A stretch of 32,000 nt of DNA from Candidatus Saccharimonadota bacterium (GCA_042852035.1 BAAFHK010000002.1:180001-212000); one strand, 5' to 3'. Positions 5,215 through 24,531 are shown, counted from the stretch's first letter. The notes: generated by a model from the sequence alone, not told the origin. Numbers and translations are program-made.

Positions 5215-6012
5215 ATGATAGAAGCATTAGCACAAACATTCCAAGTCAGCCCCTTTGATGTTATGTTAGGTGGAGGTATACTTATTCTCTCTGGTATACT
5301 TTACTATACCATATCTCTTCATCGACTTTTTGAGGCCGCATTTGGTGCTATTATTGGTATTTGAGTGTATATTTTGCTTTCGGTGTTGTTGATTTGAGAT
5401 CCTCATCTTTGATCTGAGGGGGGAATTTTTCCACTTGGCTTCTCGGTATTTCTCGTAAGTATCTCAGTCTATTTAGTGTTTATATTGGCAATAATTTTTC
5501 CACTTCATTGAGGTCTTATTATTTCTGAACCAACGCATCCAACTCTCTATACAATATTGTTTTTTTTCGTTTCAGTCTTTCTCTTTTTTGCGCTCGGATC
5601 TGTTATTGTTTACATGGTTGAGCAAAGCTATGTTTTCAAAGTATGAAATATATTCACATGGCTAAAGGACTGATCTTTTTATCTAAATGTAATAAAGCCG
5701 TCAGCATTTTATAGCTTTGTTATGAGTCATCAATATGCTATTATCCCACTGGCAGTTGTTTTGATGCTTTATAAGCTCCTTCTGGCAAATATTGTAACAG
5801 CTGCCGTGCTTTCAGTATGGTATAATCTTGCGAATGTATGATTTTATAGAAAAAAGGAAGATTCTCACTATCGAGTAGAATTTCATGAAGTTTGAGGTTC
5901 TTCTTGATGACACTGATGAGGCCATGATGATCATTGACATGGTGGGGGGCATGCTGATGCTGGCCATGATGACCATTGACATGGCGGAGGTCACGGATGA
6001 TGACATCATTAA
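5215..6012 (+). CDS. Polytopic membrane protein (about 6 TM, possibly CvpA-like) with a C-terminal His/Gly-rich tail, 265 aa
   Basis: Frame 1 is open from 5215 to 6012 with 16 in-frame TGA. Hydrophobic helices run throughout. The tail reads 'HEVGGSSGGHGGGHDDHGHGGGHADAGHDDHGHGGGHGGGHH'. TAA at 6010-6012. Confidence 0.7.
5920..6003 (+). repeat. Imperfect 42-nt tandem duplication (2 units) inside the His/Gly tail
   Basis: Unit 1 (5920-5961) is ggccatgatgatcattgacatggtggggggcatgctgatgct. Unit 2 (5962-6003) is ggccatgatgaccattgacatggcggaggtcacggatgatga. Each unit encodes GHDDHGHGGGH... Confidence 0.8.
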
Positions 6013-7000: not shown

Positions 7001-7999
7001 ATGAAAATAAAATCTTTCATCATCCTTGTAAGTATTTTCATACTTTCGAGTTGTTTTTCTGATTATTTTGATCACTGGGAAGGTGAAAATACTGAGCCAA
7101 AGATTTCTTCGATTTATCCTTGAGATTTGACAGGAGAGCTTATTATTTTGCCGAGTAAAGACGCACTGAGCAGTTTGGTAGAAAAAATTTCCCAAGCAAA
7201 AAATCGTATATGGGTCGAGACTTATACCTGGACTGAGAAAACTACTCTTGAAGCCGTAAAGAATGCCTGAAAAAATGGAAGAGATGTACGGGTTATTCTT
7301 GAGGGAAATGTTTATTGAACGCCTCGGGTAAATGATAATGCTGTAGACCTAATGAAAGAAAATGGTATTTCAGTTGTATATGCAAGTAGTGACTATGCAT
7401 TTACTCATATGAAAATGTGGATCATAGATAATGAATGGTGTATAAGTACAGGAAATTGGTCACTTTCAACTTTTACAAAGAATAGGGAATTTATTTTCTG
7501 TAGTTCAGATAGATCTATTCTTCATTCCCTTGAAGAAATATTTCTCGCAGATTATAAATACCTTCCTCCAATTTTTCGAACCTATTGATTAGATACAAGA
7601 ATTTGACTTGCACCATTAAATCTCAGGAGCTTCCTTGAAGAGAATATTAAAAATGCGAAAAATGAAATTATTCTTTATAATCAGTCTATATCTGATGAAA
7701 GAATCCTCCAGTTGCTTTCTATAAAGGATAAAGAAAAAGTGAATGTTGAATTGTGTCAGTCATCAAAGTCAAATACTTGATCAATGATAAAATCTTTGCC
7801 CTATTTTACGAGTAATGAACCCTATCTTCATGCTAAAGTGTATCTTATTGATGGTAAAAATATCCTTCTCTGAAGTGCTAATATGACACAAAATGCAATT
7901 GATAATAACCGAGAAATTATGATAAAGATTGAAAATAACAAAAATATCTATGATAAAATCAAAAATCTCTACAATATTGATTGCAAAAGGCAATACTAA
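7001..7999 (+). CDS. Phospholipase D / cardiolipin-synthase / Nuc-family lipoprotein with two HKD motifs, 332 aa
   Basis: Lipobox 'FILSSC'. HKD 1 is 'HMKMWIIDNEWCISTGNWS'. HKD 2 is 'HAKVYLIDGKNILL[TGA=G]SANMT'. Same frame as track ORF 7352-7588. TAA at 7997-7999. Confidence 0.8.
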
Positions 8000-8072: not shown

Positions 8073-10427
8073 ATGAATAAAGCATTCTATAATATTCTCA
8101 TTTTTTGTTTTGCAGTAGGTGTTTCTGTAGCTTTTTCAGTATCCACTATTACTATCTGATCAAATCAACAAATCGTAACCAAGAAAGTAACAGAAGAGAT
8201 TGTATGGAGTAAAATAACACCAGTAACCCCGCCTTGAGGGGGTTATGATATAAATACAGAGAAAATTGAGAACATTTCCGCCCAATCATTCTCACAAAAT
8301 ACCCCAATACTGGTTGATTTTTGAAGGCTTAGCTCTTTTTTATATAATTCAACCCAGTGATCTCAGTCGTGAATTCTTCAAAAGATAAATGGTTCAGGAA
8401 TCCTTATAGGTGAGGTTTCAGGTATTGTTTCTCTCTATGATCTATTCATGATGTATACCATTTATGATAATAAAGATCGATTTAGAATTGATCAAATTAC
8501 AAATGGAAGTTTCTATATAGGAAAGGAGAAAGAAGAGAATTGAGTTCAAAAAATTAGCATATATGCGATTGATTGAGTTGCACGCCTCACATTTCTATAT
8601 AACAATGAAGAAATGACAAGTCTTGTTCTCTTTCCTTGATCATATATTCGATTTGATCCGAGTCGAAATAGGTCTCTTAAGGGTGCAGATTTATTTCGTA
8701 CAATATTATCCCTCAAGGAGAGTGAGAATGAAGTATTTGAATTTGTGAATCCACGTGTAAATATCGGCCAGGAAGATGCATTCTTTAATTATAGACTCTC
8801 TTCTCCGGAATCGATGAGACTTTTTCGTATCCTTTCGGCACAATCTCGTAAAAGGGTTGAGGCTACTTCTGATAAGAAGAGGAAAATTAATATTATAAGT
8901 AATCAATGATCAACAGAGAGTCAGTGGCTTCTTAATCCAAGTAAGAAAGATCATAATATGCTCGTCAGACTTTCTGAGCTTTTGTCACATGTTATTACAA
9001 AGAAAGATTCAGAGAGGCAGATTACTGAAATTTCTAAAATATATAACGAGGCAAAAAATCTAAAGTTGAAGGACGCAACGGCAAAATGATTAGTTGAGCA
9101 ATTCCTTCTTGACGGTCGTTTCGAGGTCTACGGATGAGTTGCAAATAGCAAGTACCAGGCTTTCTATGAACAAATCGGTGAGCTTATTGGTATTAAGGCT
9201 GGCACTGGACAAAGTCGCCTTCTCCAAAGTCTTGCAGATATTTACTCGAGAAATCTATTTTCTCAAAATCGAACCGAAAAAAGTATATTAATCGATACCT
9301 ATACGCCTACTGCTTGAGAGCTCACAAAGACACTCGACCAAAATGATGTCTACCAGAAAGAATACTTTGATATTGCCATATATGCATTTAATATTCTCCG
9401 AAAGATGGAAAGATCAGTGGCTCTACTTAATAGTGAAGCAATGACAAATTCGGCGACTTATAGCTATTTTGTAACATTCTTTCGCGCTGCAAACCGCTAT
9501 ATAGAATCAATTACCGATCTTGATAAGAAACAGCAAACAATTATGAGCTTTTCCCGTCAATTCTACGACTATATACTCACAACAATTGTAAATTCACTCT
9601 ATAAGAACTTTACCATTATTGAAGATAAGGCGCTTTACCTTGCTCGAGATTATAGGGAGGGGATTAAGGTGAAAATTCCTGATGACATTCTGAATTGAAT
9701 TCAATCTGTTCAATCAAGCGTAGAATATATGACTCCTTCGATTGATGCCCTATGGACTTCATCATGACAAACTGATGAAGATACAAATACAATAGATCGA
9801 ATTCATAAAAATATCGTTCGCTTAAGGGCATTTATGACCCTCATAGATTCAGAATGATATAAATCATATGCAGAGAGTCCATATCAATATGATGATCTCG
9901 CCTGAGAAAAATGATTAGTTCTTCCTCAATTAAATGAAGAATGAACTGAGATTGTAAGGCTCGATAAAAAAATGGTTGAAAAACTTCGAAATCAGAAGAT
10001 TATCACAACAGATCCTCGAATTGCTGAACTCAAGAAAATATGGACGAGTGCTGATGCTTCAAATTGGTGAATTGAATCGGATAATATTAGAATTATTGAT
10101 GCGCCATATCAAGTAGCTCGAACAGATGGTGAAAACTCAGATATTCTTATGTCATTTCTCTATAAGGATAAGACCTTTACTGAGGGAATTATAAAGTATT
10201 GAGATCGTACTATAACAGTATATGTCCCAACTTGAGAATTCTTAACTATTTCTCAGCTCTATGGGTTCCTTTCTGAGGTATGATCTTATCTTGATACGAT
10301 TGATACCCAACTAGTGGATTATACGGGAGAAACTTGAGAAATACGAATGTATCCATTGAAGCAAAGAGTATTTGTTCGAGGAAGTATTTATCCAGTAGCC
10401 GTAGGTTTAGGAAATACAAAAAAATAG
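8073..10427 (+). CDS. Large N-terminally anchored hypothetical protein, 784 aa
   Basis: Checked codon by codon. Frame 0 is open from ATG 8073 (in-frame TAA at 8031) to TAG 10425-10427, with about 27 in-frame TGA. Includes track ORF 9405-9698. N-terminal TM is 'FYNILIFCFAVGVSVAFSVSTITI'. No P-loop or other motif recognised. Confidence 0.75.
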
Positions 10428-13660: not shown

Positions 13661-14221
13661 ATGAAAACTATAGCTTTCATTATCGTTCTTTCTTTTCTTA
13701 CGGGATGTTCAATATTGCCTTTAAAACAAGGGAATCATCGAAATATAGTAGAACTATTTGCATGAGACATGAGAATTGGTTATGGACTAATGCTAGAAAG
13801 TGGTGCTTACATGACAGCCACGCATGTTCTAAATAATTGTAAGAAATTGAATTGTTATATTCATGGAAAGAATATCTGAAATAGGGTAATTAGTTTGGAT
13901 TGAGATATAAGTATTATAGGGGAAGATGTTAACCTCGAAGATGTAAAGCTTGCATGAGTAATAAGCTGAGAATCTCTCTATCTTCTTCGTCCAGAGAATT
14001 GAAGAATGAATCGATATACCACAAAAGTTACTTGAGTAAATATCGATTATATAGCGTATGATAGCCTCCTATCAGGATCATATTTAACTTGAGGAATTGA
14101 GATTGGTATATCGCTTCAAAAGGGTGATAGTGGACTCCCTGTTTGGAATGAATGAGACCAACTCGTCGGTGTTGTGAGTTCTACGGATGTGGTAGGAGGA
14201 AAAAGTTATATAGCACAATAA
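13661..14221 (+). CDS. Small trypsin-fold (S1-like) serine protease lipoprotein, 186 aa
   Basis: Lipobox 'FLTGC'. His motif 'MTATHVL'. Asp 'GDISIIG'. Ser motif 'KGDSGLPVW'. About 11 in-frame TGA, so absent from the track. TAA at 14219-14221. Confidence 0.6.
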
Positions 14222-14223
14222 AA

Positions 14224-14254
14224 AATCCCCATCTCTTATTTTGGAGAGGGGATT
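14224..14254 (-). terminator. Hairpin terminator between convergent genes
   Basis: aatcccc(a)tctc, 8-nt loop, gaga-ggggatt. On the minus strand it is followed by a T5 run. There is no T-run on the plus-strand side. Confidence 0.45.
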
Positions 14255-14279: not shown

Positions 14280-16670
14280 TTAAGGATTTATTGGGGGTTG
14301 CTTAGTAGTTGTAGCTTGTGCTTGATCTCCCGACTTTTTCTCTTCAGGCTTAAAATAATCTTTATTAATGCTTGTTATGGCTTTTGCTACTTCTTCGGCA
14401 GCTTTTAGGGTCATAGAATTAGATGTCATAAGTGATTTTAGGAAATCATCCTTTGAGATAATTCATTTTTTTCATTCTACTTGTTTTTTAATTTCCTCAG
14501 TAGTATAGCTAATTGTATCCTCCCCAGCCTTATTCTTAATAGTTATAGGTGTTCCTCAATTGATGGTAACATTTACCGAATCAGAAGATCCTACTCTTCA
14601 AGAAAGGAATCAGGCTGAAGTATTATTTCCACCTTTCGATCAACCAGTAAGTGATTTAAAGGCACTCATTAACTCGCTGTCATTTGTGTTAATCTTTCAG
14701 TCTTTTGCATCATTTGTTCGATTCACTATTAGTTCAGCTTTTTCTTTGTCGTATCACATCTGCTGAAGGGCTTCCATTTTTTTATACTTGTTATCACCAT
14801 ATTGGTCATTTAAATGTTTTACAAGATCAGTGAATAATGTAGAATATTCTTGGTTTGTGCCTGAAGTTTTCCTGAGTATTTCTCAAGCTTCTTTTAAGGC
14901 AGGACTATTTATGTCATTCTTTGCATTCTTTAGGGTATCTCTAAATTTAACTTCATCAGCTGCTGATGTGACCTTATCGCCACCAAATAATTTTCCATAA
15001 TTTGATTTTTTAAAGTCCTCATCTCATTTACGTTGGAGCGCGATACCCGCATTATCAAGTACTTTATCTGCAGCTTTAAGACTGAGACCACCTGTACCAG
15101 GGATAGGTGTATATTTTGGTAAGTCCATCGCAAGTTTTCCAACACGTTTCCCCATTGCTTCAAATGGTTCAAATGCAGCCTTTGCAACCTTCGTAACATT
15201 CTTTGCTGCCATGAAGGCTGACCAAAGAAAAATAAGTGCAATAATATCGATGATAAGCGTTCAGAATACGCTTCATGTGGCTGATAATACACTATTTACA
15301 GTAGTGGCAGCCGCAGCATATTCTTTTATATCTGTAACTATTGATCCGTAGAATTTAAATGTAACTCATCCAAAGATTACTTCAGTTACACTCACATTTA
15401 TCGTTGAATTTGCTGATTCTGATCAATCATCTCTTTGTTCAACCTTCTTTTTGATAACGTTATCAGGAGATCCCATAATCCCAAGGATTTGACAGCCTTG
15501 ACCTCCTGGTTGCATGTAACTTTCTTCACATTTAACAGGAGTTGTTCCTAGACTTGGGCTTTGCAGAACAGATATGACAACTATACCAAAAGAGAGTGAT
15601 AATCCTACAAGTGCTGGTACAAAGGCGAGTCCTATAAATTCTTTAATTTCGAAGCTATCTCCATTTTCTTTTCCTCCAAAGAAACCATCTCACACAACAT
15701 ATCTGAGAGTAAGAAGGGGGGAGAAAATGGCATAAAACCAGAGTTTAATGGCTCTCATCATAAGCATAAATATGAGAGCAACGACCAAAAATCAGAATAT
15801 AACAAACATTACAACACCAAGGATTCATTTATTAACTATTCCACCTATGGACTGCATAACATCGGTTGTTGTGCTTAGTTTTTTTATTTCATTAAATTTA
15901 AAAAGACCATTTCCATAGATAAGAAGTGAACCGTAGATTCAGGAAGAGTTCGTAAGGATATCTTTTGGTTTTAAAAGTTTTGTTGGACTATACTGAGTTT
16001 GTCAGCTAACGACTGAATACGCAGGATCTGTAAAAAACTCATATTTATCAGGTATGGATTCTGTGTTCCACCAAGAATCAGGTGAGTTATTTCCCGCCAT
16101 ATACTTCTCCATCACTTCAGTTGGTATATTCATAACTGAAGCTGTGACAATTGTTGAGAGTGAAATGATGAATTGAACAAACCACCACGTCATCGGTACA
16201 AGTATAATTCCGAGAGCAAGACGAGGAAGAAGTTTTTTATATCAATAGTTCTGGGAATTAAATATCGTTGCCAGAGCTATGAATATGAGAAGTATCGCAT
16301 AGATAAAATAGGTGATATTTGACACAAGTACCCATAGATCATGAAGGATCGGTCTCAGGTTAAAAAGATCTCCCGTTGTCCAATCAGGTGACATGAGCCA
16401 TCCTGCGAGCATTATTGCAGGAGATACAACAAAAGATAAGAGTTCTAGTGCTATATTGAGTCAGCCTATTAATTTATTATACATTTTTACCATCTCTTCA
16501 TCTGAGGTACATTGCGGTTGATTTGCTCATCCACACTCTGTCGCAGCAAATGTAGGAGTTACGATTGAGACACTTGATAGTATATCCGTGCTCTTGGTAT
16601 CTATTTCGATAAAAAATCCTCCCAATATCGTGAGAGATAATATTATTGATGTAAGGATTTTTCGAGGCAT
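14280..16670 (-). CDS. 796-aa polytopic envelope protein. Topology, size and synteny suggest TrbL/VirB6/TcpH-like (inference only).
   Basis: Minus strand translated triplet by triplet. Open from ATG 16670 to TAA (complement of 14280-14282) with about 22 in-frame TGA. Contains track ORFs 16002-16193 and 15024-15212. Signal/anchor 'MPRKILTSIILSLTILGGFFI'. About 8 more TM helices (e.g. 'LLPRLALGIILVPMTWWFVQFIISLSTIV', 'ILGVVMFVIFGFLVVALIFMLMM', 'FIGLAFVPALVGLSLSFGIVVISVL'). Two loops carry Cys pairs ('ECGGANQPQC', 'KCEESYMQPGGQGC'). About 290-aa K/E/N/S-rich soluble C-terminus. Confidence 0.6.
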
Positions 16671-16687
16671 AGAATATATGTATTTTT

Positions 16688-16716
16688 ATTAAACCATAAG
16701 TCTCATTTTTTTGCAA
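16688..16716 (-). promoter_or_regulatory. Possible internal promoter (TTGCAA, 17-nt spacer, TTTAAT) upstream of the polytopic gene
   Basis: ttgcaa at 16711-16716 (palindromic hexamer), a 17-nt spacer, then tttaat (complement of 16688-16693). It lies in the 55-bp gap between the two minus-strand genes. Confidence 0.3.
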
Positions 16717-16725
16717 ATATCATAA

Positions 16726-17568
16726 TTATTCTGTCAGAGACGCTTTATAGTCTGACTCTGTACTAATAAGATTCAATTTTTTTACAAGTTCTGTTCCAGA
16801 GTCAGGAAGTACTACCACTACTTGCTTTATTATAGCGTCTCTATTGTTAATAAGAGTATCGAGAATCTTTCTATTTTGAGCCTGAAGGATGCTATATCAG
16901 CGCTGGAATCTTTCAACATAAGCAAGATAGACTCGAGCCCTATTTTCATCATTTTTTGCTTGAACATAGGTATCGATGACTGAGTCGACCCCATCGTATT
17001 CAAATGCTTTATACTTTGTCTCCATGTTAGACTTTGCCTCTTCTGTAAGAGAACTACTTTCGCTAATTACCCTTTGAAGCTCATTTGCTTGTTCTCTGAG
17101 CATTGCCATTCTGTCCGTTGTTTTTGTATAGTATGATTTGAGTATTTCAATATGCTCATCAAGTGCTGTCATGCGATCATTTGACTCCTCAAGCATGGTT
17201 TTGATATCGATCTTGAGCACGTTTACATATGATTGTAAAGCGAGCATATTTGTTCCGATGAGCTTTGTTTGAGCGTCGCGAGGATTTGCAAGCGCTTCTG
17301 CAACGGTAATATTCTCATCGAGTCCATTACGAGCTGAAGTTTTCTTTATGGTTGACTTCTGCTCAGAGATAGAAAGAGAAGCAGCTGTCGCATAACTTCC
17401 CAAATAGACCATATTTGCTTGTGTAAAATTTCCATCATTTCCAGCAACTACCCTCGGAGAAATATATGGAGTTATATAACCCCAAGAAAGATGAAGAACG
17501 AGCGTGAAGAACAGCGTGAATATTAGTGTGTTTTTGGTGAAATCCTTGATTTCAGGGTGCATATGCAT
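16726..17568 (-). CDS. N-terminally anchored coiled-coil protein, 280 aa (TrbJ/VirB5-like by architecture and position; inference only)
   Basis: Track ORF 16897-17568 extended through TGA 16897-16899 to TAA (complement of 16726-16728). TM 'TLIFTLFFTLVLHLSWGYI', then long heptad-like helices ('DIKTMLEESNDRMTALDEHIEILKSYYTKTTDRMAMLREQANELQRVISE'). Confidence 0.6.
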
Positions 17569-17628
17569 ATGCTGAATCGGTCAATAAAGATAGTCGAGTA
17601 CTCTTATATTACACGTTTTTAGAAAAGA

Positions 17629-19944
17629 ATGCAAAAAATACGTACAATCTTCACATCACTTCTCTTATCTATTTTTGGATATTCTCTGGTTTTTCCAGTA
17701 TTTGCCTCGATAGAATTCGTAGATAAATATGATTATAGTGATTATATTGATAAAATCAATATCACTTCAAGCGATAATGAATTTCATTTCAAGAAACAGT
17801 TTGAAAGTGAAAGAACGACCTTTTTTCTACGTTTTAGTGACTACATTCCTGAATCTTCGGATGAAGTTGATGTTATTTGGCACATTGATGGAAAAGACTA
17901 TCATCGTCACCTTGATTGGGACAATGAAGAACAATATGGAGATACGACATTCCCTCTTGTTACAAAAGAAAGAAGAGAAATTAGTTTGACTTTGGTTTTT
18001 CACTGAATGAAGAGACCAAAATCAGTTGAGTTAGTCACGAGTAATCAATCGAGTCAATGAAAAAGAATCATATTTCGTAAAGAATATACGAGCGTACAAG
18101 CAAGTGAATCGAATAGCGTAAAAGTCATAAGTCGTGCAGAGTGGTGAGCTGATGAATCACTTCGATATATGTCGAGCTCAAGAATAGCACAAAAAAAACA
18201 TGAATGGGAAAATCGTGGAAGAACCCCAAAAATTATCGAGGAAACAGAGATTGAAAGAGCGAAACGAATCAATTCAGATAAGGAATATAATAGCCTTATA
18301 TCTTTAGATAATGATTCCAATACGGTAGTTCGTCTCACTCGTTATGAATGAGGTAATAAGCTTATCTTCCCAATCCGAACGGCAAAAAAAATAAGCCGAA
18401 TTTTTATCCACCATACTGCAGAAGGCCTTGAACAAGATGCTGATGATGCGAGCCTTATTCGAGCAATCTACCTTTACCATACAAAAACAAAATGATGGTG
18501 AGATATTGGATATAATTTTATTATTGGGCAACGATGAGTCATATATGAGTGAAGATCATGATGAGATTATGTCGAATGAGCTCATGTATATGCTAATAAT
18601 CTTTGAACCGTATGAATTTCTGTTATATGAAACTATCAGACACTTCATCTCAATCGTGACCAAAGGACCTGACTTGTTGATGCAATATCATATGTTGCCA
18701 AAAAATACGGAATTAATGTTGATGAAGAGACTTCGGGTATTATGACGTGTAAATGAGGGGAGAATTGTTCTTGGAAAAAAGTTACTACCCAACGACTTGC
18801 TTGACATAGAGATGCATGAAATACAAGTTGTCCCTGAGATAATATATATGATGAGCTCCCAGCCATCAGAAATGAAGTTGTATGAAAAGTATGAAAAGTA
18901 AAACCAGTATATAATCCAGAAGTTCAAAAGAAAGATCCACTTGATCCTGAAGATGAAATTCAGTTCATGATACAGGCAAGCGCTCAAAATATAACAAAGA
19001 TTTCTTCTACTATTTTGAATTCACAAAATATTAATCCCCCCGCAAAGAGTATCCCATCAAAGAGTATTAAGATCCGCCTTTCCTATCCTTCTGATACGCT
19101 GAGTTTCCAGTCAGCCACAGAGAACAAGGCTATTGTAAGAATGAATGCTAAAATTCTCCCATTTCAAAAAAATACGGAAGGAAATGTATTCCTCAAGGGA
19201 ACTAATGAAGTGGTATTTAAATCAGGAAATAAGGAGTACAGCTGAAAAACGCTTACCGTAAGTTCCGATGTTATTCGTATTTCTTCATGGAATAGAATCC
19301 CACTCTGGGATAGTTCACGACGATACAACGATAACCTCTTTCGTGGGAAAATCTATATTTCGAATCAAAATGGTAAGCTTCTTGTTGTAAATGAATTACC
19401 TATAGAAGATTATCTTCGCTGACTAGGAGAAGTTTCTGATACTGACCATACTGAAAAAATTAAAACGATTCTTGTTGCAGCTCGTACTTATGCGTATTTT
19501 TATATAAAACCAACAAATAGAAAGTATGATACAAAACTCTATGATGGATCAGATAATCCTGATGAGTTCCAAAAATATCTTGGTTATGGATATGAGATGC
19601 GATCACCAAATGTAGCAAAACAGGTAGAGGAAACAAAGTGACTGGTTATTACCTTTAAAGAAAAGCTCATCAAACCATGGTATTTCTCAAGTTCAGATGG
19701 AAATACTCGATCTTTTAAAGAATACTGCCAATCAAATAACCCAGGGAAAAGCTGCGAAGATATCCCATACCTTCAATCTGTATCAGATCCTGCAGGAATT
19801 GGACACCAGAGAAGTGGTCATTGAGTTGGTATCTCTTGAATCGGGGCAACCTATGCTGCAAATATGGGGAAGAACTTTAAACAAATTATCGGTTATTATC
19901 TCAATGGAACACTTATACGAAATATTGAATCAATCAAGGAATAG
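17629..19944 (+). CDS. Secreted/anchored peptidoglycan hydrolase fusion of N-acetylmuramoyl-L-alanine amidase (Amidase_2/PGRP) and SpoIID/LytB, 771 aa
   Basis: Frame 1 checked line by line, with 26 in-frame TGA. Joins track ORFs 17629-18006, 18169-18351 and 18967-19245. Signal 'MQKIRTIFTSLLLSIFGYSLVFPVFA'. Amidase_2 motifs are 'RAEW[G]A', 'IFIHHTAEG', 'K[G]W[G]DIGYNFIIGQR[G]VIYE[G]RS[G][G]' and 'LA[G]HRDA[G]NTSCP[G]D'. SpoIID motifs are 'LPIEDYLR[G]LGEVSD..ILVAARTYAYFY', 'PWYFSSSDGNTRS' and 'GH[G]VGIS[G]IGATYAANMGKNFKQIIGYYLNGT'. TAG at 19942-19944. Confidence 0.9.
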
Positions 19945-20047: not shown

Positions 20048-20593
20048 ATGTATCTTTCCGATAAAGACATCAAAAGTTCCATTCAGACTGGTGAAATTAC
20101 TATTACTGACTTTGATAATAATCGACTTCAACCAGCAAGTTATGATATACGGCTTGGATCGAAATTTCTTATCGTAAAAGATTATTCTGTGGTAAATATT
20201 GATCCAGTAAACAAAGTTCTTCCTGAATATGAAGAAATAACAGTAACTCCTGAAGATGGATTTATTCTGCGTCCTGGAGTTACAGTTCTTGGCACTTCAA
20301 TAGAAAAATTTTGATCGGAGAAATACCTTATTCAACTTTCAGGAAAGTCTTCACTTGCACGACTTGGTCTAATCGTACATAATACAGCTGGGCTTATTAA
20401 TCCTGGTCACTATCTCAATATTACCTTTGAGCTAGCAAATATGAATTCTATACCAATTATTCTTAGGCCTGGAATGGAAATTGCTCAGATTTTATTTTCT
20501 GAGATGAGTTCCCCACCTCAGAAAGACTACAGAAAAATATGAAGGTATGGTGAAGGGGAGGCAAATATGGTGAGCTATGTCCATAAAGATTAA
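20048..20593 (+). CDS. dcd: dCTP deaminase, 181 aa
   Basis: Track ORF 20048-20314 extended through 2 TGA. 'LQPASYDIRLG' and 'GKSSLARLGLIVHNTAGLINPGHYLNITFELANMN'. TAA at 20591-20593. Confidence 0.85.
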
Positions 20594-23475
20594 CTTGTCA
20601 AAGTGTGCATAAAAGCATATCTTTCTATTGGAAAATCTAGCATTATTACACTTAATATTTTCGGGCGTTCTTTTATGAAAGTATGATATTTTCATTTTGG
20701 ATCTGCTACCTCTTGTCTTATAAAATCCTCATAGATTTTTCGATCAAGGCGAGACATTCACATATAGAAGAAGTGTTCCAAGTTCGAAACCCTAAAAAAT
20801 GAAATATCTCATTTTTGTACCATGAGAAGTCTTCTTTCGACTCATCATGCTTCGGTTCGTAAATCTTCAAAATCCATATTCCACAAATTATATAATGCGG
20901 ATTTTTTATCTTTTAGCTGAGCGATAGTTTGTTCATTTGTGCTATCAAATTTTAGGAAATGATCTATTAGTAAGCGGAGTCATCATCAGATTTTTACTCT
21001 TAAGGTTGATAGGAGTCATTCAAAAACTTTTCCCTCAAAAGCAATTTTATTTTTTATGAGGAGTTTTACGAGTTTTTCTCATCAGTTTCCTCAAAGAATT
21101 CAAACAATCCTGTCATCCTCGATTAATCATCGAAGAAGTCATGCTATATTTCCTCATTGAGACTCCAATCAAAGAACTGCATCGAGTGCTTTTTCTCAAT
21201 TTGCTTGATTGAACAAGATTCTGAGTGAACTCGAGCTGTCAGGTTCTCACAATTTTTTTATATACCTTCATACCTCTTCATGACTTCATTCCCTGATAAA
21301 TGATATGGCCAATTCAGCTGTTTTTGAGTCTATAACCGCAGGAATCTCTGAGAATTTGAGCAACTTTACTCTTCCTATGAGTTTTTCAATTCATTTAATA
21401 CTCAGCGCATCTAGAGCTTTCTGGAGTCATGTCATTTCGTACTTTATATCATATAGTTCAAGAAATTCTGCCAATTCTTTAGTTGTAGAGGTGTTATTAA
21501 ATTCGGCTACCGCATCGAGTAATCACTGTGATGCAGTTTGTCAGCTAAATCGTTCAAGAAAATCTGGTCAATACCTATTTAATTGTTCTTTTATCTTTAT
21601 GGAATCTTGTTCTCATAAGATTTCATCAGCCTTTCATGCATATCATTTTATAAGCATTTTTCTGGCTTCTACTTTAGTGAGTTTTCCTTCGCCTTCTCGA
21701 GTCATAATTCGAATCTTCTCCGCAAGTTGTTTTATCCCATAGTTTCACAAAGATCACTTTACTTTATTGTGTGCATCTATAACTCTCTCGGCTTGAGCTG
21801 GAGTTAATCATTCTCTTTGAATAAGGAATTCTTTCCTAATAACATCTTCCTTTACTCATCTTTGCTTCGCTAGAGCAGCTATTTCATCATTAAGTCTGAG
21901 TGCGTTTGGAAGGTTATCTATTTTTGATGATCCCATTTTTTCTCACTTGTTGAGTCAGTGACTTATGCTTTTGAAGAGCACATCCTGAGTATCTTTCGTA
22001 TTAATTCATATTTTTTCAAGCGCAGGTCAAAGTGTGGTGAAGAGAATTCATATCTTTTCTATAAACTTTGCTTTTGCATCTGTCATTTTTTCCTGCGCAA
22101 GAGCTCGTTCTAATATGGTAGGAAGTTGAGAAAGAACACGTTTCATTCTCCCTAAAGCTTCTGCGATTTTCTTTGCTTTAATAAGCTTACCGAATTGTCC
22201 TACTCAGAGGGTAATGCTATCGAGAGTGTCAGCGAGGGTGGAGAGTCATTCAAGTGGCATATTCACATTTTCTCACGTCATATTTATTCCATTTGCCATA
22301 TTTCTTCATGAGTCTATAGCTCAAGCAATGCTTCATACAGTAGGGAGTATAGGAATAAGTTGTGATAAAAGAATAAGTATTTGTTGTATATTCATTCATT
22401 TCATTGATTCAGAAATATCTCATGAAATGAGTTTTCCTCATTCAAAATTCGGGGTATTTGAGAACAATCAATCTTTTCATCATTTTGCAGTTGAGCGTAT
22501 GGATCTTGCCTCGTTCTCATACGCTTGAAAATAAGAACTCGACTGATTATTTCAAAGAAGTACTTTTATTAGGTCAATCTTCTCTCAGTTTACTGTGACA
22601 TATCTATCAGGTGATCAGATTGGTATTGAAAGTTCACTGAGATTTCCTGCTTTTAGAAAATTTAAAAGAGTTTGTCTTCAGTTCAAGGGAGCCCTTTGAT
22701 TTAATTCATCAAGAAGCGCTCTTCAGACTATGTAGCTAAGATTTGCACTTGAAAGATTTCTTCCTATTCGCATCTCAGTTTGTATTTCATCGGGCAGAAG
22801 TTGTATTTTCCCAGCCAAGAGTGGGAGGATGATTTTTTCGTGTATATGAGTTCAAAACTTCTTATCGAGTCATTGAACGGAGAGTACATATTTCCCAAGA
22901 TTCTCTTTTTGATACTCAGATCCATCTGGAGCTTTGATGCGTTCCTCATGGAATGCTTTCGCAACAGATTCACTAAATCATAACTGTCATGAGACTCTTG
23001 CTTTAAGTATCTCTGAGAGATAGTAGGCTGAATCGGTAGAGGCAAATGGTCCAGCAATTTCTGTTTGCCTATTTTTTACAGAAAGAATTTGTTCTATTGT
23101 AACTTCCGAAAGATCGTCTACCGCTTCACGAGCAACTTGCATATACCTATCTTTCACATCATCCGGAATAGATCTATCTCATAGAAAAGAAAGTATGACC
23201 GCAAGAACGGGTGCAACTATCGCATCAATTTTTTGTTTATCAATTTTGAGTCATTCGAGAAGCCTCTCTGTTTTTCTTATGAGATCTTTTGATATTCCAT
23301 CCACTTTTGTTGTTATAGTTTCTGGGACTCATAGAGACTTTAGTCATTTGATTTGTTCTGTAATATTTCAGAGAGACCGTACTCAAAAATCCCGAGGTAA
23401 GAGAGGGGCGCTCTTCATTTCTCGGGTTGCTCTTATGCCATCGAGGGAATTTTCTAGAGATGCGGTGACGGACAT
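20590..23475 (-). CDS. 961-aa hypothetical protein, mostly helical by composition, with a central hydrophobic segment; no family recognised
   Basis: Minus strand translated triplet by triplet. Open from ATG 23475 to TAA (complement of 20590-20592). About 65 of about 86 Gly codons are TGA, so the standard track shows only antisense ORFs here. Central 'MNIQQILILLSQLIPILPTVGSIAGAIDSG'. Gly-rich helical repeats near the C-terminus ('GLLRGLIEDDRIVGILGGNGGEKLVKLL'). No Walker A motif seen. Confidence 0.75.
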
Positions 23476-23484
23476 GTGACTACT

Positions 23485-24531
23485 CTACCATACTCTCTCA
23501 TTTCATGCAAACAACATGCTTCATTTTCTTTTTCTCCATCGAGAAGGCTGAAATACCTTACTCATGTATTGATGGAATTTATTTCAAACTTCATAGAGGG
23601 GAACCCATTTATTGTCAACAAAAATTCCACTAGGATATATGTAACGGTCTCTTGGCAAACCAGAAATTTTTGCCAATCTCCCCATAATTGATATTCCATA
23701 CAAATCCGAAGAAAAACTTCTTTTCACTACACTATCTCATGTGTTTCACCATTCGAGCCCCCTTGGGAACTGGGGAACCTGGGAGACTTGAGTTGATCAA
23801 TACCTTTCACTCAATGCATCAATATTTGTAAGAAAAGCCTCTTCTAAAGTTATACCATTTTCATGATGAGAAAACGGAACTCAAGAAGTGGGAAGATTCT
23901 CATTACTTATATATGACGGAAGGATGAGTCAACTGTAGGTATCAGGATCTCTCGTATCGCTGAGATGGACTTCTCATATTCAAAGTGCTTTATATGCCCT
24001 ATCTGCCATTCTTTGTGAGAGTGGTCAAATCTCGAATCATTTTATATCGATATTTCGCTTTCATTGCCTTTGGGCTCATATAAATTGTGCTAATCCAAGA
24101 ATTCCACTTCCGGCTCAAATATCCCAACCATGAAAATGTGATCATTCTGTAGTTTCTATTCAAGAAATAATATCCTGCATAATAGCAACTGTTGAGGGTA
24201 TATCGAGCAACATGGCAATCTGATATCAGATAGTTTGAATTACTTGATGAGTTTCTGAAGGATAAGAGAAATGTGTTCTGTGGTTCTGTTGCCCAAGGGA
24301 ACCTCAAAATACTTCTCAAAGGATTTTGAGGTATTGTGTGCCAACGAATTCAACATCTTTTCTCTCATTCTGGTCAACTTGCATGAGAAAAACCAAAAGA
24401 TATTTTATACAGATACTTCAGAGAAGTGAAAAATCTAAAGAAGATTTCTCTCATTTTGCTTCCTCAAGATCTTCCAGAAGTGATGTCTCCTCTCGAAATA
24501 CTCACTCTTTAAATGGAACTCAAAAGTACAT
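23485..24531 (-). CDS. Class I SAM-dependent methyltransferase, 348 aa, substrate unknown
   Basis: Open from ATG 24531 (in-frame TAA just upstream at complement of 24547-24549) to TAG (complement of 23485-23487), with about 24 in-frame TGA. Motif I is 'HFHGWDI[G]AGSGILGLAQF'. An acidic residue follows beta-2 ('IDIK[G]FEI'). No NPPY/DPPY motif. ATG 24384 is an alternative start. Confidence 0.65.

Follow-up and report, generated by a model that had tools for sequence, protein, structure and literature searches.

The DNA analysed here is the whole 32,000-nucleotide stretch BAAFHK010000002.1:180001-212000 of assembly GCA_042852035.1 (Candidatus Saccharimonadota bacterium), referred to below as the window. 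It has a G+C content of 36% and, under genetic code table 11, contains only 13 open reading frames (ORFs) of at least 150 amino acids in its 32 kb; when TGA is read as a sense codon, long ORFs fill the window. With TGA as glycine, the minus strand carries the two adjacent genes that are the subject of this study. Gene A (16726–17568), supported by ORF translation, homologues and an AlphaFold2 (AF2) model, encodes a 280-residue bitopic coiled-coil protein and has a single, internal in-frame TGA. Gene B (14280–16670), supported by ORF translation, profile search and AF2, follows after a 55-bp spacer and encodes a 796-residue polytopic membrane protein with 22 TGA(Gly) codons. On the other side of gene A, across a divergent intergenic region of 60 bp (17569–17628, between the two start codons), the plus strand encodes a 771-residue hydrolase, secreted or anchored (17629–19944). 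The original prediction for this DNA, which proposed a TrbJ-TrbL-like (VirB5-VirB6-like) gene pair with no secretion ATPase in the window, had given these coordinates, the lengths of 280 and 796 residues, the 55-bp spacing and the flanking genes, all of which are correct on recoded translation.

Proteins A and B are 100% identical to HHAS10_08740 and HHAS10_08730, respectively, both deposited at NCBI as 'hypothetical protein' from one metagenome-assembled genome of 'Candidatus Altimarinota bacterium' (Gracilibacteria). Genetic code 25 is appropriate, since glycine codons predominate among the homologues at several conserved columns in which B has TGA, and since in-frame TGA is present in 82 of the 83 homologous genes examined; as sampled, the B family occurs in UGA-recoded lineages. 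Many public copies of both families (alignments A1, A2 and A4) show tryptophan where the NCBI translation and the conserved columns give glycine, because TGA was translated as Trp (table 4) instead of Gly (table 25), and this mistranslation can lower similarity scores. Directly after the stop codon of B lies a terminator-like hairpin with a U-run (14218–14254, minus strand), recognised by folding against shuffles: the minus-strand segment 14212–14282 folds at −19.6 kcal/mol (z = −3.3), and none of 200 shuffled sequences was as stable. This position suggests that an A-B transcription unit ends there. A simple terminator consensus scan did not pick up the hairpin, because of a bulge, and a promoter scan of the 17569–17628 intergenic region gave nothing above chance; regulation may be shared between gene A and the hydrolase gene across these 60 bp.

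Protein B belongs to a large family. An initial search gave 102 homologues, mostly of 700–840 residues, and exhaustive searching with a profile yielded 1815 cluster representatives at E ≤ 1e-3, of which 357 reached E ≤ 1e-30; many of the 1815 are probably fragments resulting from standard-code gene calling. The matches listed in the representative search (top 150, all with E < 1e-76) were close relatives and gave no bridge to other families. Conservation covers the first ~530 residues, which make up the N-terminal membrane domain. The invariant positions in two alignments (A1 with 49 sequences and A4 with 60) include R306, W311, S317, P318 and P352 as well as S94, P95, D96 and W97, the latter four forming an SPDW motif. 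Eight hydrophobic segments are present, as are cysteine pairs at 46/54 and 381/393. Across the 49 homologues, cysteines occur solely in the loops 23–69, 181–274 and 371–466 and always number 0, 2 or 4; this loop-confined, even-numbered distribution, together with the loop charges, is fitted better by approximately six spanning segments and two non-spanning hydrophobic helices than by the eight transmembrane helices originally proposed. Prediction thus favours a topology with the N-terminus inside, six spans, three outside loops of the disulfide type and a cytoplasmic C-terminal domain. In the published topology, VirB6 proteins have a large outer loop, a transmembrane segment, a cytoplasmic loop, a transmembrane segment, an outer loop, a transmembrane segment and a cytoplasmic tail, and B is predicted to share this series, with the large loop 181–274 outside before the core, the loop 371–466 outside and the tail inside.

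The C-terminal part of B had been described as a charged, low-complexity tail of about 290 residues, but it is more than a low-complexity stretch. The AF2 model of B (overall pLDDT 71.8; predicted local distance difference test) folds residues 560–775 at a pLDDT of 80–95, and in distant homologues profile matches continue to the C-terminus and the tail can still be aligned. This domain of about 250 residues (residues ~546–796; 14283–15035, minus strand), as delimited by AF2, charge and cysteine statistics and profile coverage, is charged, devoid of cysteine, predicted to adopt an alpha/beta fold and probably cytoplasmic. As modelled, the polytopic part followed by a folded C-terminal domain matches an 'extended VirB6' style of architecture.

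The similarity of B to known proteins is concentrated in a core of residues ~286–371 (15558–15815, minus strand), located by hhalign, tblastn, PF04610 mapping and invariant columns and consisting of a transmembrane helix, the stretch MRAIKLW...SPL, a loop, IKEFIGLAFVPA and a second transmembrane helix. When the B protein of the window was compared by tblastn with 72,556 plasmids (7.3 Gb; E ≤ 10), matches were found solely in 186 plasmids of the Bacillus cereus group, all of them on query residues 288–374 with E values of 0.06–0.2, and the gene beneath these matches is annotated as 'type IV secretion system protein' in several plasmid records. A second member of the B family again matched exclusively these Bacillus genes of the type IV secretion system (T4SS), and two further homologues (P0091 and P0043) gave no match in the plasmids. 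One Bacillus relative (P0224) matches PF04610 TrbL with 32.1 bits against a gathering score of 25.9, and in another (P0223) residues 178–265 correspond to PF04610 positions 100–187, exactly the stretch that aligns with B. The VirB6-like protein of the Bacillus cluster L003 itself had no Pfam match at E ≤ 0.01, and a profile of the Bacillus VirB6-like proteins found no relative by sequence in the PDB. A direct link to a TrbL family is suggested by TrbL_4 (PF19597), which was matched by only two of 49 B-family members, both below threshold; the better match (P0091, residues 223–307 against profile positions 102–187; 22.4 bits with a cutoff of 27, E 9e-5) covers what is taken to be the equivalent of the 286–371 core. 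None of 60 divergent B-family members matched the TrbL/VirB6 families in the Pfam and NCBIfam scans, and by the curated gathering thresholds B is not a member of TrbL/VirB6.

Profile-to-profile comparison places the core in the same register throughout. Alignment A1 matched the single Bacillus 'type IV secretion system protein' by hhalign with a score of 61.8 (E 1.4e-6, probability 90%, 69 columns), the Bacillus family alignment with 52.7 (E 1.9e-5, probability 77%) and an alignment of diverse Firmicutes VirB6-like proteins (Bacillus, Niallia, Rossellomorea, Paenibacillus, Clostridium and Lactobacillus) with 39.7 (E 5.6e-4); over these comparisons the probability ranged from 30% to 90%, on matches of only ~75 columns. 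The divergent B subfamily taken alone scored 28.6 and 32.1 (E 0.02 and 0.005), again in this register. Thirty locally shuffled profiles and the reversed profile reached at most 27.9 against the Bacillus family alignment, shuffles reached at most 26.3 against the diverse alignment, and 12 unrelated membrane proteins scored 14.0–22.7 against the B family. Of the six Firmicutes VirB6-like proteins taken individually, five matched the same stretch of B, scoring 24.6–61.8. The shared pattern is MRA(I/V)xL(W/Y)...(S/G)P(L/V), a short loop and (K/R)EF(I/M)Gxx F(V/I)xA, placed between two transmembrane helices, with some of its residues invariant in the B alignments. From these sequence comparisons, homology of the B core to the VirB6/TrbL superfamily appears likely, though not established. 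The proposed TrbJ-TrbL-like pair is therefore partly supported: remote yet consistent profile evidence speaks for B as an extended, TcpH-like VirB6/TrbL protein, but not for A as TrbJ or VirB5.

For protein A, the family search found 126 homologues, mostly 278–281 residues long and 34–83% identical. In their alignment (A2), the conserved regions are the short N-terminal stretch EIKDFTKNTL, a single hydrophobic helix, the linker after it and the helical C-terminal portion. The linker is modelled with low AF2 confidence, yet it contains nearly invariant residues. The model (overall pLDDT 74.7) places the N-terminal hydrophobic helix at residues 5–36 and three long helices within residues 96–241 (pLDDT ~90). 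VirB5 has a cleaved signal peptide, unlike A, which appears to keep its N-terminal membrane anchor: the 12-residue N-terminus and the hydrophobic helix are conserved, with no cleavage motif evident from the alignment. What A does have in common with trbJ-trbL and virB5-virB6 is gene order, a gene for a helical protein of 220–280 residues lying immediately upstream of a polytopic one (compare virB5-virB6 of pTiC58). The A of the window matched nothing in Pfam or NCBIfam, no VirB5 or TrbJ family was matched by any of 41 homologues scanned, hhalign of the A family against Agrobacterium VirB5 gave a probability of 0.1%, and comparison with VirB1, 2, 3, 5, 7, 8, 9 and 10 and with all proteins of the Bacillus T4SS cluster revealed no similarity.

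Among the 50 PDB matches listed by Foldseek for the A model there was no VirB5 or TraC entry; they comprised generic helical bundles of the AhlC, VIPP1/PspA and F-BAR type (best E 0.013, for AhlC; TM-score ~0.3, for AhlC ~0.34). The best PDB sequence match of the A profile was CagS of the Helicobacter cag T4SS (2g3v, E 0.006), and its family, PF16707, was matched weakly by four of the 41 homologues; this match was treated as noise of coiled-coil and helical bias, though not rigorously excluded. The remaining family matches of the A homologues were likewise coiled-coil-type noise, for example IFT57. The description that suits protein A best is that of a new bitopic coiled-coil family tied to B.

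This tie is seen in the gene neighbourhoods. The 771-residue protein encoded divergently from A contains, according to Pfam, an Amidase_2 domain (residues 253–404, E 7.7e-13) and a SpoIID domain (581–676, E 5.9e-12). Two distant relatives of the locus (L001 and L002), in which B is 38–41% identical, have the same order of a divergent hydrolase, a ~280-residue protein and a ~785-residue protein, and the trio is embedded in shared synteny with thyA, tmk, dcd, CYTH and TauE on one side and MscL, holA, FKBP, trmD, a 750-residue protein, PLD and ruvC on the other. In view of this housekeeping synteny, a mobile or conjugative element was rejected as the carrier of the A-B pair. In a member with B at 25% identity the trio is kept in a different genomic setting. 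A scan of the GTDB species genomes yielded 143 B relatives; the best 79 of these loci are labelled Gracilibacteria, Peribacteria or Patescibacteria, with single records labelled Paceibacterota or 'bacterium'. Context was typed with our own hidden Markov models on the ORFs of these best 79 of 143 loci, the loci found earlier and the window. Type 1 (hydrolase, A, B) comprises 20 loci including the window, with the hydrolase seen in 19 and the divergent hydrolase/A arrangement conserved. Type 2, with 14 loci, has a weaker A-like gene abutting B and no hydrolase, and in type 3, the remaining loci, B stands alone, mostly just downstream of gatB, as in the complete genomes HOT-871 and 28_42_T64.

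The linkage of A with B in two divergent groups (34 loci in all) argues that the two proteins work together. The original prediction had asked whether the combination of coiled-coil, polytopic and amidase-SpoIID proteins recurs in related genomes, and it does so in about 20 loci and down to 25% identity. The best 79 loci represent 79 assemblies with one B gene each, except for a tandem pair in one of them, and so the three types may be lineage-specific settings of one gene. The exception is a Gracilibacteria locus (L055, 9941–14220) with two B-family genes in tandem. In 27 loci B lies directly downstream of a ~484-residue gene that was read by eye as gatB, with argS- and relA/spoT-like genes nearby.

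Among characterised systems, the closest comparison is with the VirB6-like proteins of the Firmicutes MPF_FATA type, such as WP_215559661.1 from a megaplasmid of the Bacillus cereus group (NZ_CP036079.1) and the relatives on pXO1, which fall into families PF04610 and PF19590. In the Bacillus cluster the order is PrgI, a ~300-residue hypothetical protein, VirB4 (DUF87), a 1344-residue VirB6-like protein and a lysozyme/M23/NlpC-P60 hydrolase. In all six Firmicutes clusters inspected (L003, L086–L090) the VirB6-like gene directly follows virB4, and in four of the six a hydrolase gene comes directly after it; the Niallia stretch ends at the VirB6-like gene and the Lactobacillus cluster shows no hydrolase. 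The common order in these plasmid clusters is (pilin), PrgI, a ~300-residue hypothetical protein, VirB4 (DUF87), a VirB6-like protein of 420–1503 residues and mostly a hydrolase, and outside Bacillus the VirB6-like genes are annotated merely as 'hypothetical protein'. Like these proteins, B continues from a polytopic N-terminal domain into a long hydrophilic extension at the C-terminus, shares the core motif and has a gene for a large multi-domain peptidoglycan hydrolase next door; such a two-activity hydrolase gene adjoins the A-B pair in the window and in 19 of the 20 type-1 loci, as in monoderm T4SS modules. The pairing in four of six Firmicutes clusters therefore supports the trio as a T4SS sub-module.

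There are also clear differences from the Firmicutes proteins. Identity is ~30% over only ~75 residues, B has the SPDW motif and the disulfide-type loops, and the hydrolase combines Amidase_2 with SpoIID, whereas the Firmicutes enzymes combine lysozyme/SLT, M23 and NlpC/P60 domains. Unlike the plasmid-borne Firmicutes genes, B is chromosomal, lies in conserved housekeeping synteny and is never found beside virB4 or prgI. TcpH of pCW3 and ConG of ICEBs1 are proteins of ~800 residues with a multi-transmembrane N-terminal part and a C-terminal domain of ~250 residues, and they are encoded beside the cell-wall hydrolases TcpG and CwlT in operons that also contain VirB4 (TcpF, ConE) and coupling proteins. 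B resembles TcpH and ConG in size and architecture, a likeness drawn from their descriptions only, but it is not in an operon with VirB4 or a coupling protein.

The lack of a secretion ATPase beside the pair was confirmed and turned out to extend well beyond the window. No P-loop ATPase or relaxase family turned up among the window proteins scanned, the syntenic loci contain housekeeping genes only, and no virB4 or T4SS cluster was found around B in the window or within 10 kb in the 82 related loci. In a 2025 survey, the Patescibacteria T4SS was described as a relative of the monoderm MPF_FATA class, VirB6 homologues were reported as 'scarce or absent' in Microgenomatia and Gracilibacteria, 'suggesting extreme sequence divergence', the VirB3 and TrsD homologues of Gracilibacteria were found mostly away from virB4, and VirB1 was considered possibly replaced by other glycosidases (PMC12102498). 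Since T4SS genes are reported to be dispersed in Gracilibacteria, the missing virB4 neighbour weakens the membership of B in VirB6 without excluding it, and B fits the gap left by the survey, which found VirB6 scarce or absent in this class. Four of the five B-carrying genomes checked are VirB4-positive in Table S1 of PMC12102498, namely CG2_30_37_12, CG12_big_fil_rev_8_21_14_0_65_38_15, HOT-871 and GN02-872.

The best explanation of these results, which we put forward tentatively and at a little under an even chance, is that B is a divergent, extended VirB6 and that together with a stalk-like A and a VirB1-like hydrolase it constitutes the wall and membrane part of a dispersed Gracilibacteria T4SS. 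B would serve as the channel or platform in the cytoplasmic membrane for a monoderm-type (MPF_FATA-like) system. A, presumably co-transcribed with B, would probably assemble on it as a stalk or spacer reaching into the wall, its three-helix coiled coil of ~150 residues being a functional analogue, and not a homologue, of VirB5 or VirB8. The Amidase_2-SpoIID enzyme would take the role of VirB1/CwlT/PrgK (TcpG), stripping stem peptides and cutting the denuded glycan so that the wall is opened locally. The ATPases and VirB3/TrsD, with which B would have to cooperate in moving whatever substrate may be transported, would be encoded elsewhere in the genome, as PMC12102498 reports for the class. The linkage of B to the hydrolase down to 25% identity parallels the VirB6-hydrolase pairing of Firmicutes and therefore counts for this explanation.

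A considerable number of observations weigh against it. The B of the window has no Pfam or NCBIfam match even at E ≤ 1, its similarity to VirB6 spans just ~75 of 796 residues, and the divergent B subfamily by itself gives E values of only 0.005–0.02. The Firmicutes VirB6 profile is not significant against individual sequences (best domain E 0.0085 for the B of the window among 9,550 ORFs), and Agrobacterium VirB6 shows no similarity to B. A PDB profile search with B gave tail noise only (E 0.7 or worse), and Foldseek of the AF2 model against the PDB had a best E of 0.62 with no T4SS entry among the 50 matches listed, a negative of limited weight because the model is of medium confidence and multi-domain; the search against viral structures returned no meaningful match. 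Protein A has no T4SS relative among all the T4SS proteins compared, and in many lineages B is present without an adjacent A or hydrolase. No VirB4-, VirB11- or VirD4-like ORF was found within 10 kb of B in the 82 loci (1.3 Mb in total), and the complete genome 28_42_T64 contains an intact B (L081) while being listed as VirB4-negative (PMC12102498 Table S1).

Some of these points would suit a secretion-independent role in wall remodelling, in which A and B are the scaffold or regulator of the Amidase_2-SpoIID hydrolase acting on the cell's own peptidoglycan during division, separation or growth; we regard this, the main rival, as rather unlikely. Amidase and SpoIID lytic transglycosylase activities work together in the sporulation engulfment machinery, and the hydrolase, the sole linked gene of known activity, combines these two engulfment-type activities. 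Its arrangement would, at the same rather low probability, be analogous to that of SpoIIM with SpoIIP and SpoIID, where amidase and SpoIID are tied to a polytopic membrane protein, or of FtsX with EnvC/PcsB, where a coiled-coil protein is associated with a wall hydrolase, and VirB6 ancestry would then be an old exaptation. Both analogies are functional; that a wall hydrolase has a coiled-coil partner is a recurrent theme. The position of the triad in housekeeping synteny (thyA, tmk, dcd, holA, trmD, ruvC) with no mobile element, the missing ATPase near B in 82 loci and the intact B of a complete genome reported as VirB4-negative all count in favour of such a role. Against it, neither A, B nor their homologues matched SpoIIM, FtsX, EnvC or any hydrolase-regulator family in the Pfam and NCBIfam scans, and, unlike FtsEX, the pair has no FtsE-type ATPase nearby. 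Moreover, the only sequence signal of B points to VirB6-like proteins, B is not beside the hydrolase in ~60 of the 82 loci, and the pairing of a hydrolase with VirB6 is itself typical of monoderm T4SS clusters.

The original prediction had also suggested a stripped-down or repurposed conduit, and this idea survives, as an unlikely variant, in the form of a VirB6-derived, ATPase-independent core envelope device, which with A and a processive amidase/SpoIID hydrolase would breach the cell's own or the host's peptidoglycan and hold open a cell-cell conduit without VirB4. A device of this kind is hinted at because B is kept in VirB4-negative 28_42_T64 and is absent from every ATPase neighbourhood examined; this one genome speaks for a B that can persist, and may even act, in the absence of VirB4.

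As a quite improbable alternative, B would be unrelated to VirB6 and a membrane protein peculiar to its lineage, for example a transporter, a translocase of lipids or glycans, or a platform for adhesion or anchoring, its likeness to TrbL having arisen by chance or through convergent helical hairpins. In favour of this, the similarity is short and below HMMER significance, its score drops from 52.7 to 39.7 when the VirB6 profile is broadened, nothing is seen with one of the six Firmicutes proteins or with two of the four tblastn queries, and B has no structural match. Against it, one register is kept with five independent Firmicutes proteins and by two B subfamilies, and the scores exceed those of every shuffle and unrelated membrane protein tested. 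What is presumed to be the same B segment is indicated by two independent TrbL-type Pfam families, PF19597 directly and PF04610 via the Bacillus proteins, and no transporter or flippase family matched B in the Pfam, NCBIfam, PDB or Foldseek searches.

Several other features of the window were recorded. The convergent gene at 13661–14221 (plus strand), on the far side of B, encodes a lipobox protein (LTGC) with weak trypsin-family matches and a GDSG motif. Both flanks of the pair, this trypsin-like lipoprotein and the divergent Amidase_2-SpoIID hydrolase, are thus as originally described, but among 83 loci a homologue of the lipoprotein recurs solely in L002, and it was rejected as a part of the conserved module. 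On the minus strand, 20590–24531 is occupied by ORFs of 961 and 348 residues, which lie between dcd and the CYTH gene and have no Pfam match, the former with no NCBIfam match either; the same slot holds nothing in L001 and a 1200-residue ORF in L002, and it looks like a variable, lineage-specific insertion slot. A 784-residue protein with an N-terminal hydrophobic segment and no family match is encoded at 8073–10427 (plus strand); it is syntenic (L001 16324–18570; L002 16242–18578) and adjoins a PLD-type lipoprotein at 7001–7999. The polytopic membrane protein at 5215–6012 (plus strand) has a His/Gly-rich tail (GGHGGGHDDHGHGGGH...), matches only glycine-rich proteins in Pfam and could be metal-binding.

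The T4SS has been found essential for epibiotic growth in the one Patescibacteria strain tested so far, and transfer of macromolecules between parasite and host is its suspected function (PMC12102498; bioRxiv 10.64898/2026.06.21.733656). The B family is a concrete candidate for the VirB6 channel subunit that the 2025 survey could not find in Gracilibacteria; it is widespread in the UGA-recoded members of this class and comes with the unrecognised partner A and a dedicated wall hydrolase. Judged by its sequences, a highly divergent VirB6-like family that is invisible to current profiles and occurs in a new arrangement with a new partner is plausible. Its significance is limited by homology evidence that is modest and by a link to VirB4 that we infer. 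If B is such a VirB6, T4SS detection profiles could be extended to Gracilibacteria, targets for cryo-electron tomography and genetics would be defined for Gracilibacteria co-cultures, and the extent to which a T4SS can be dispersed over a reduced genome would become apparent. If B works without VirB4, a part of a secretion system would have been rebuilt into a different envelope machine.

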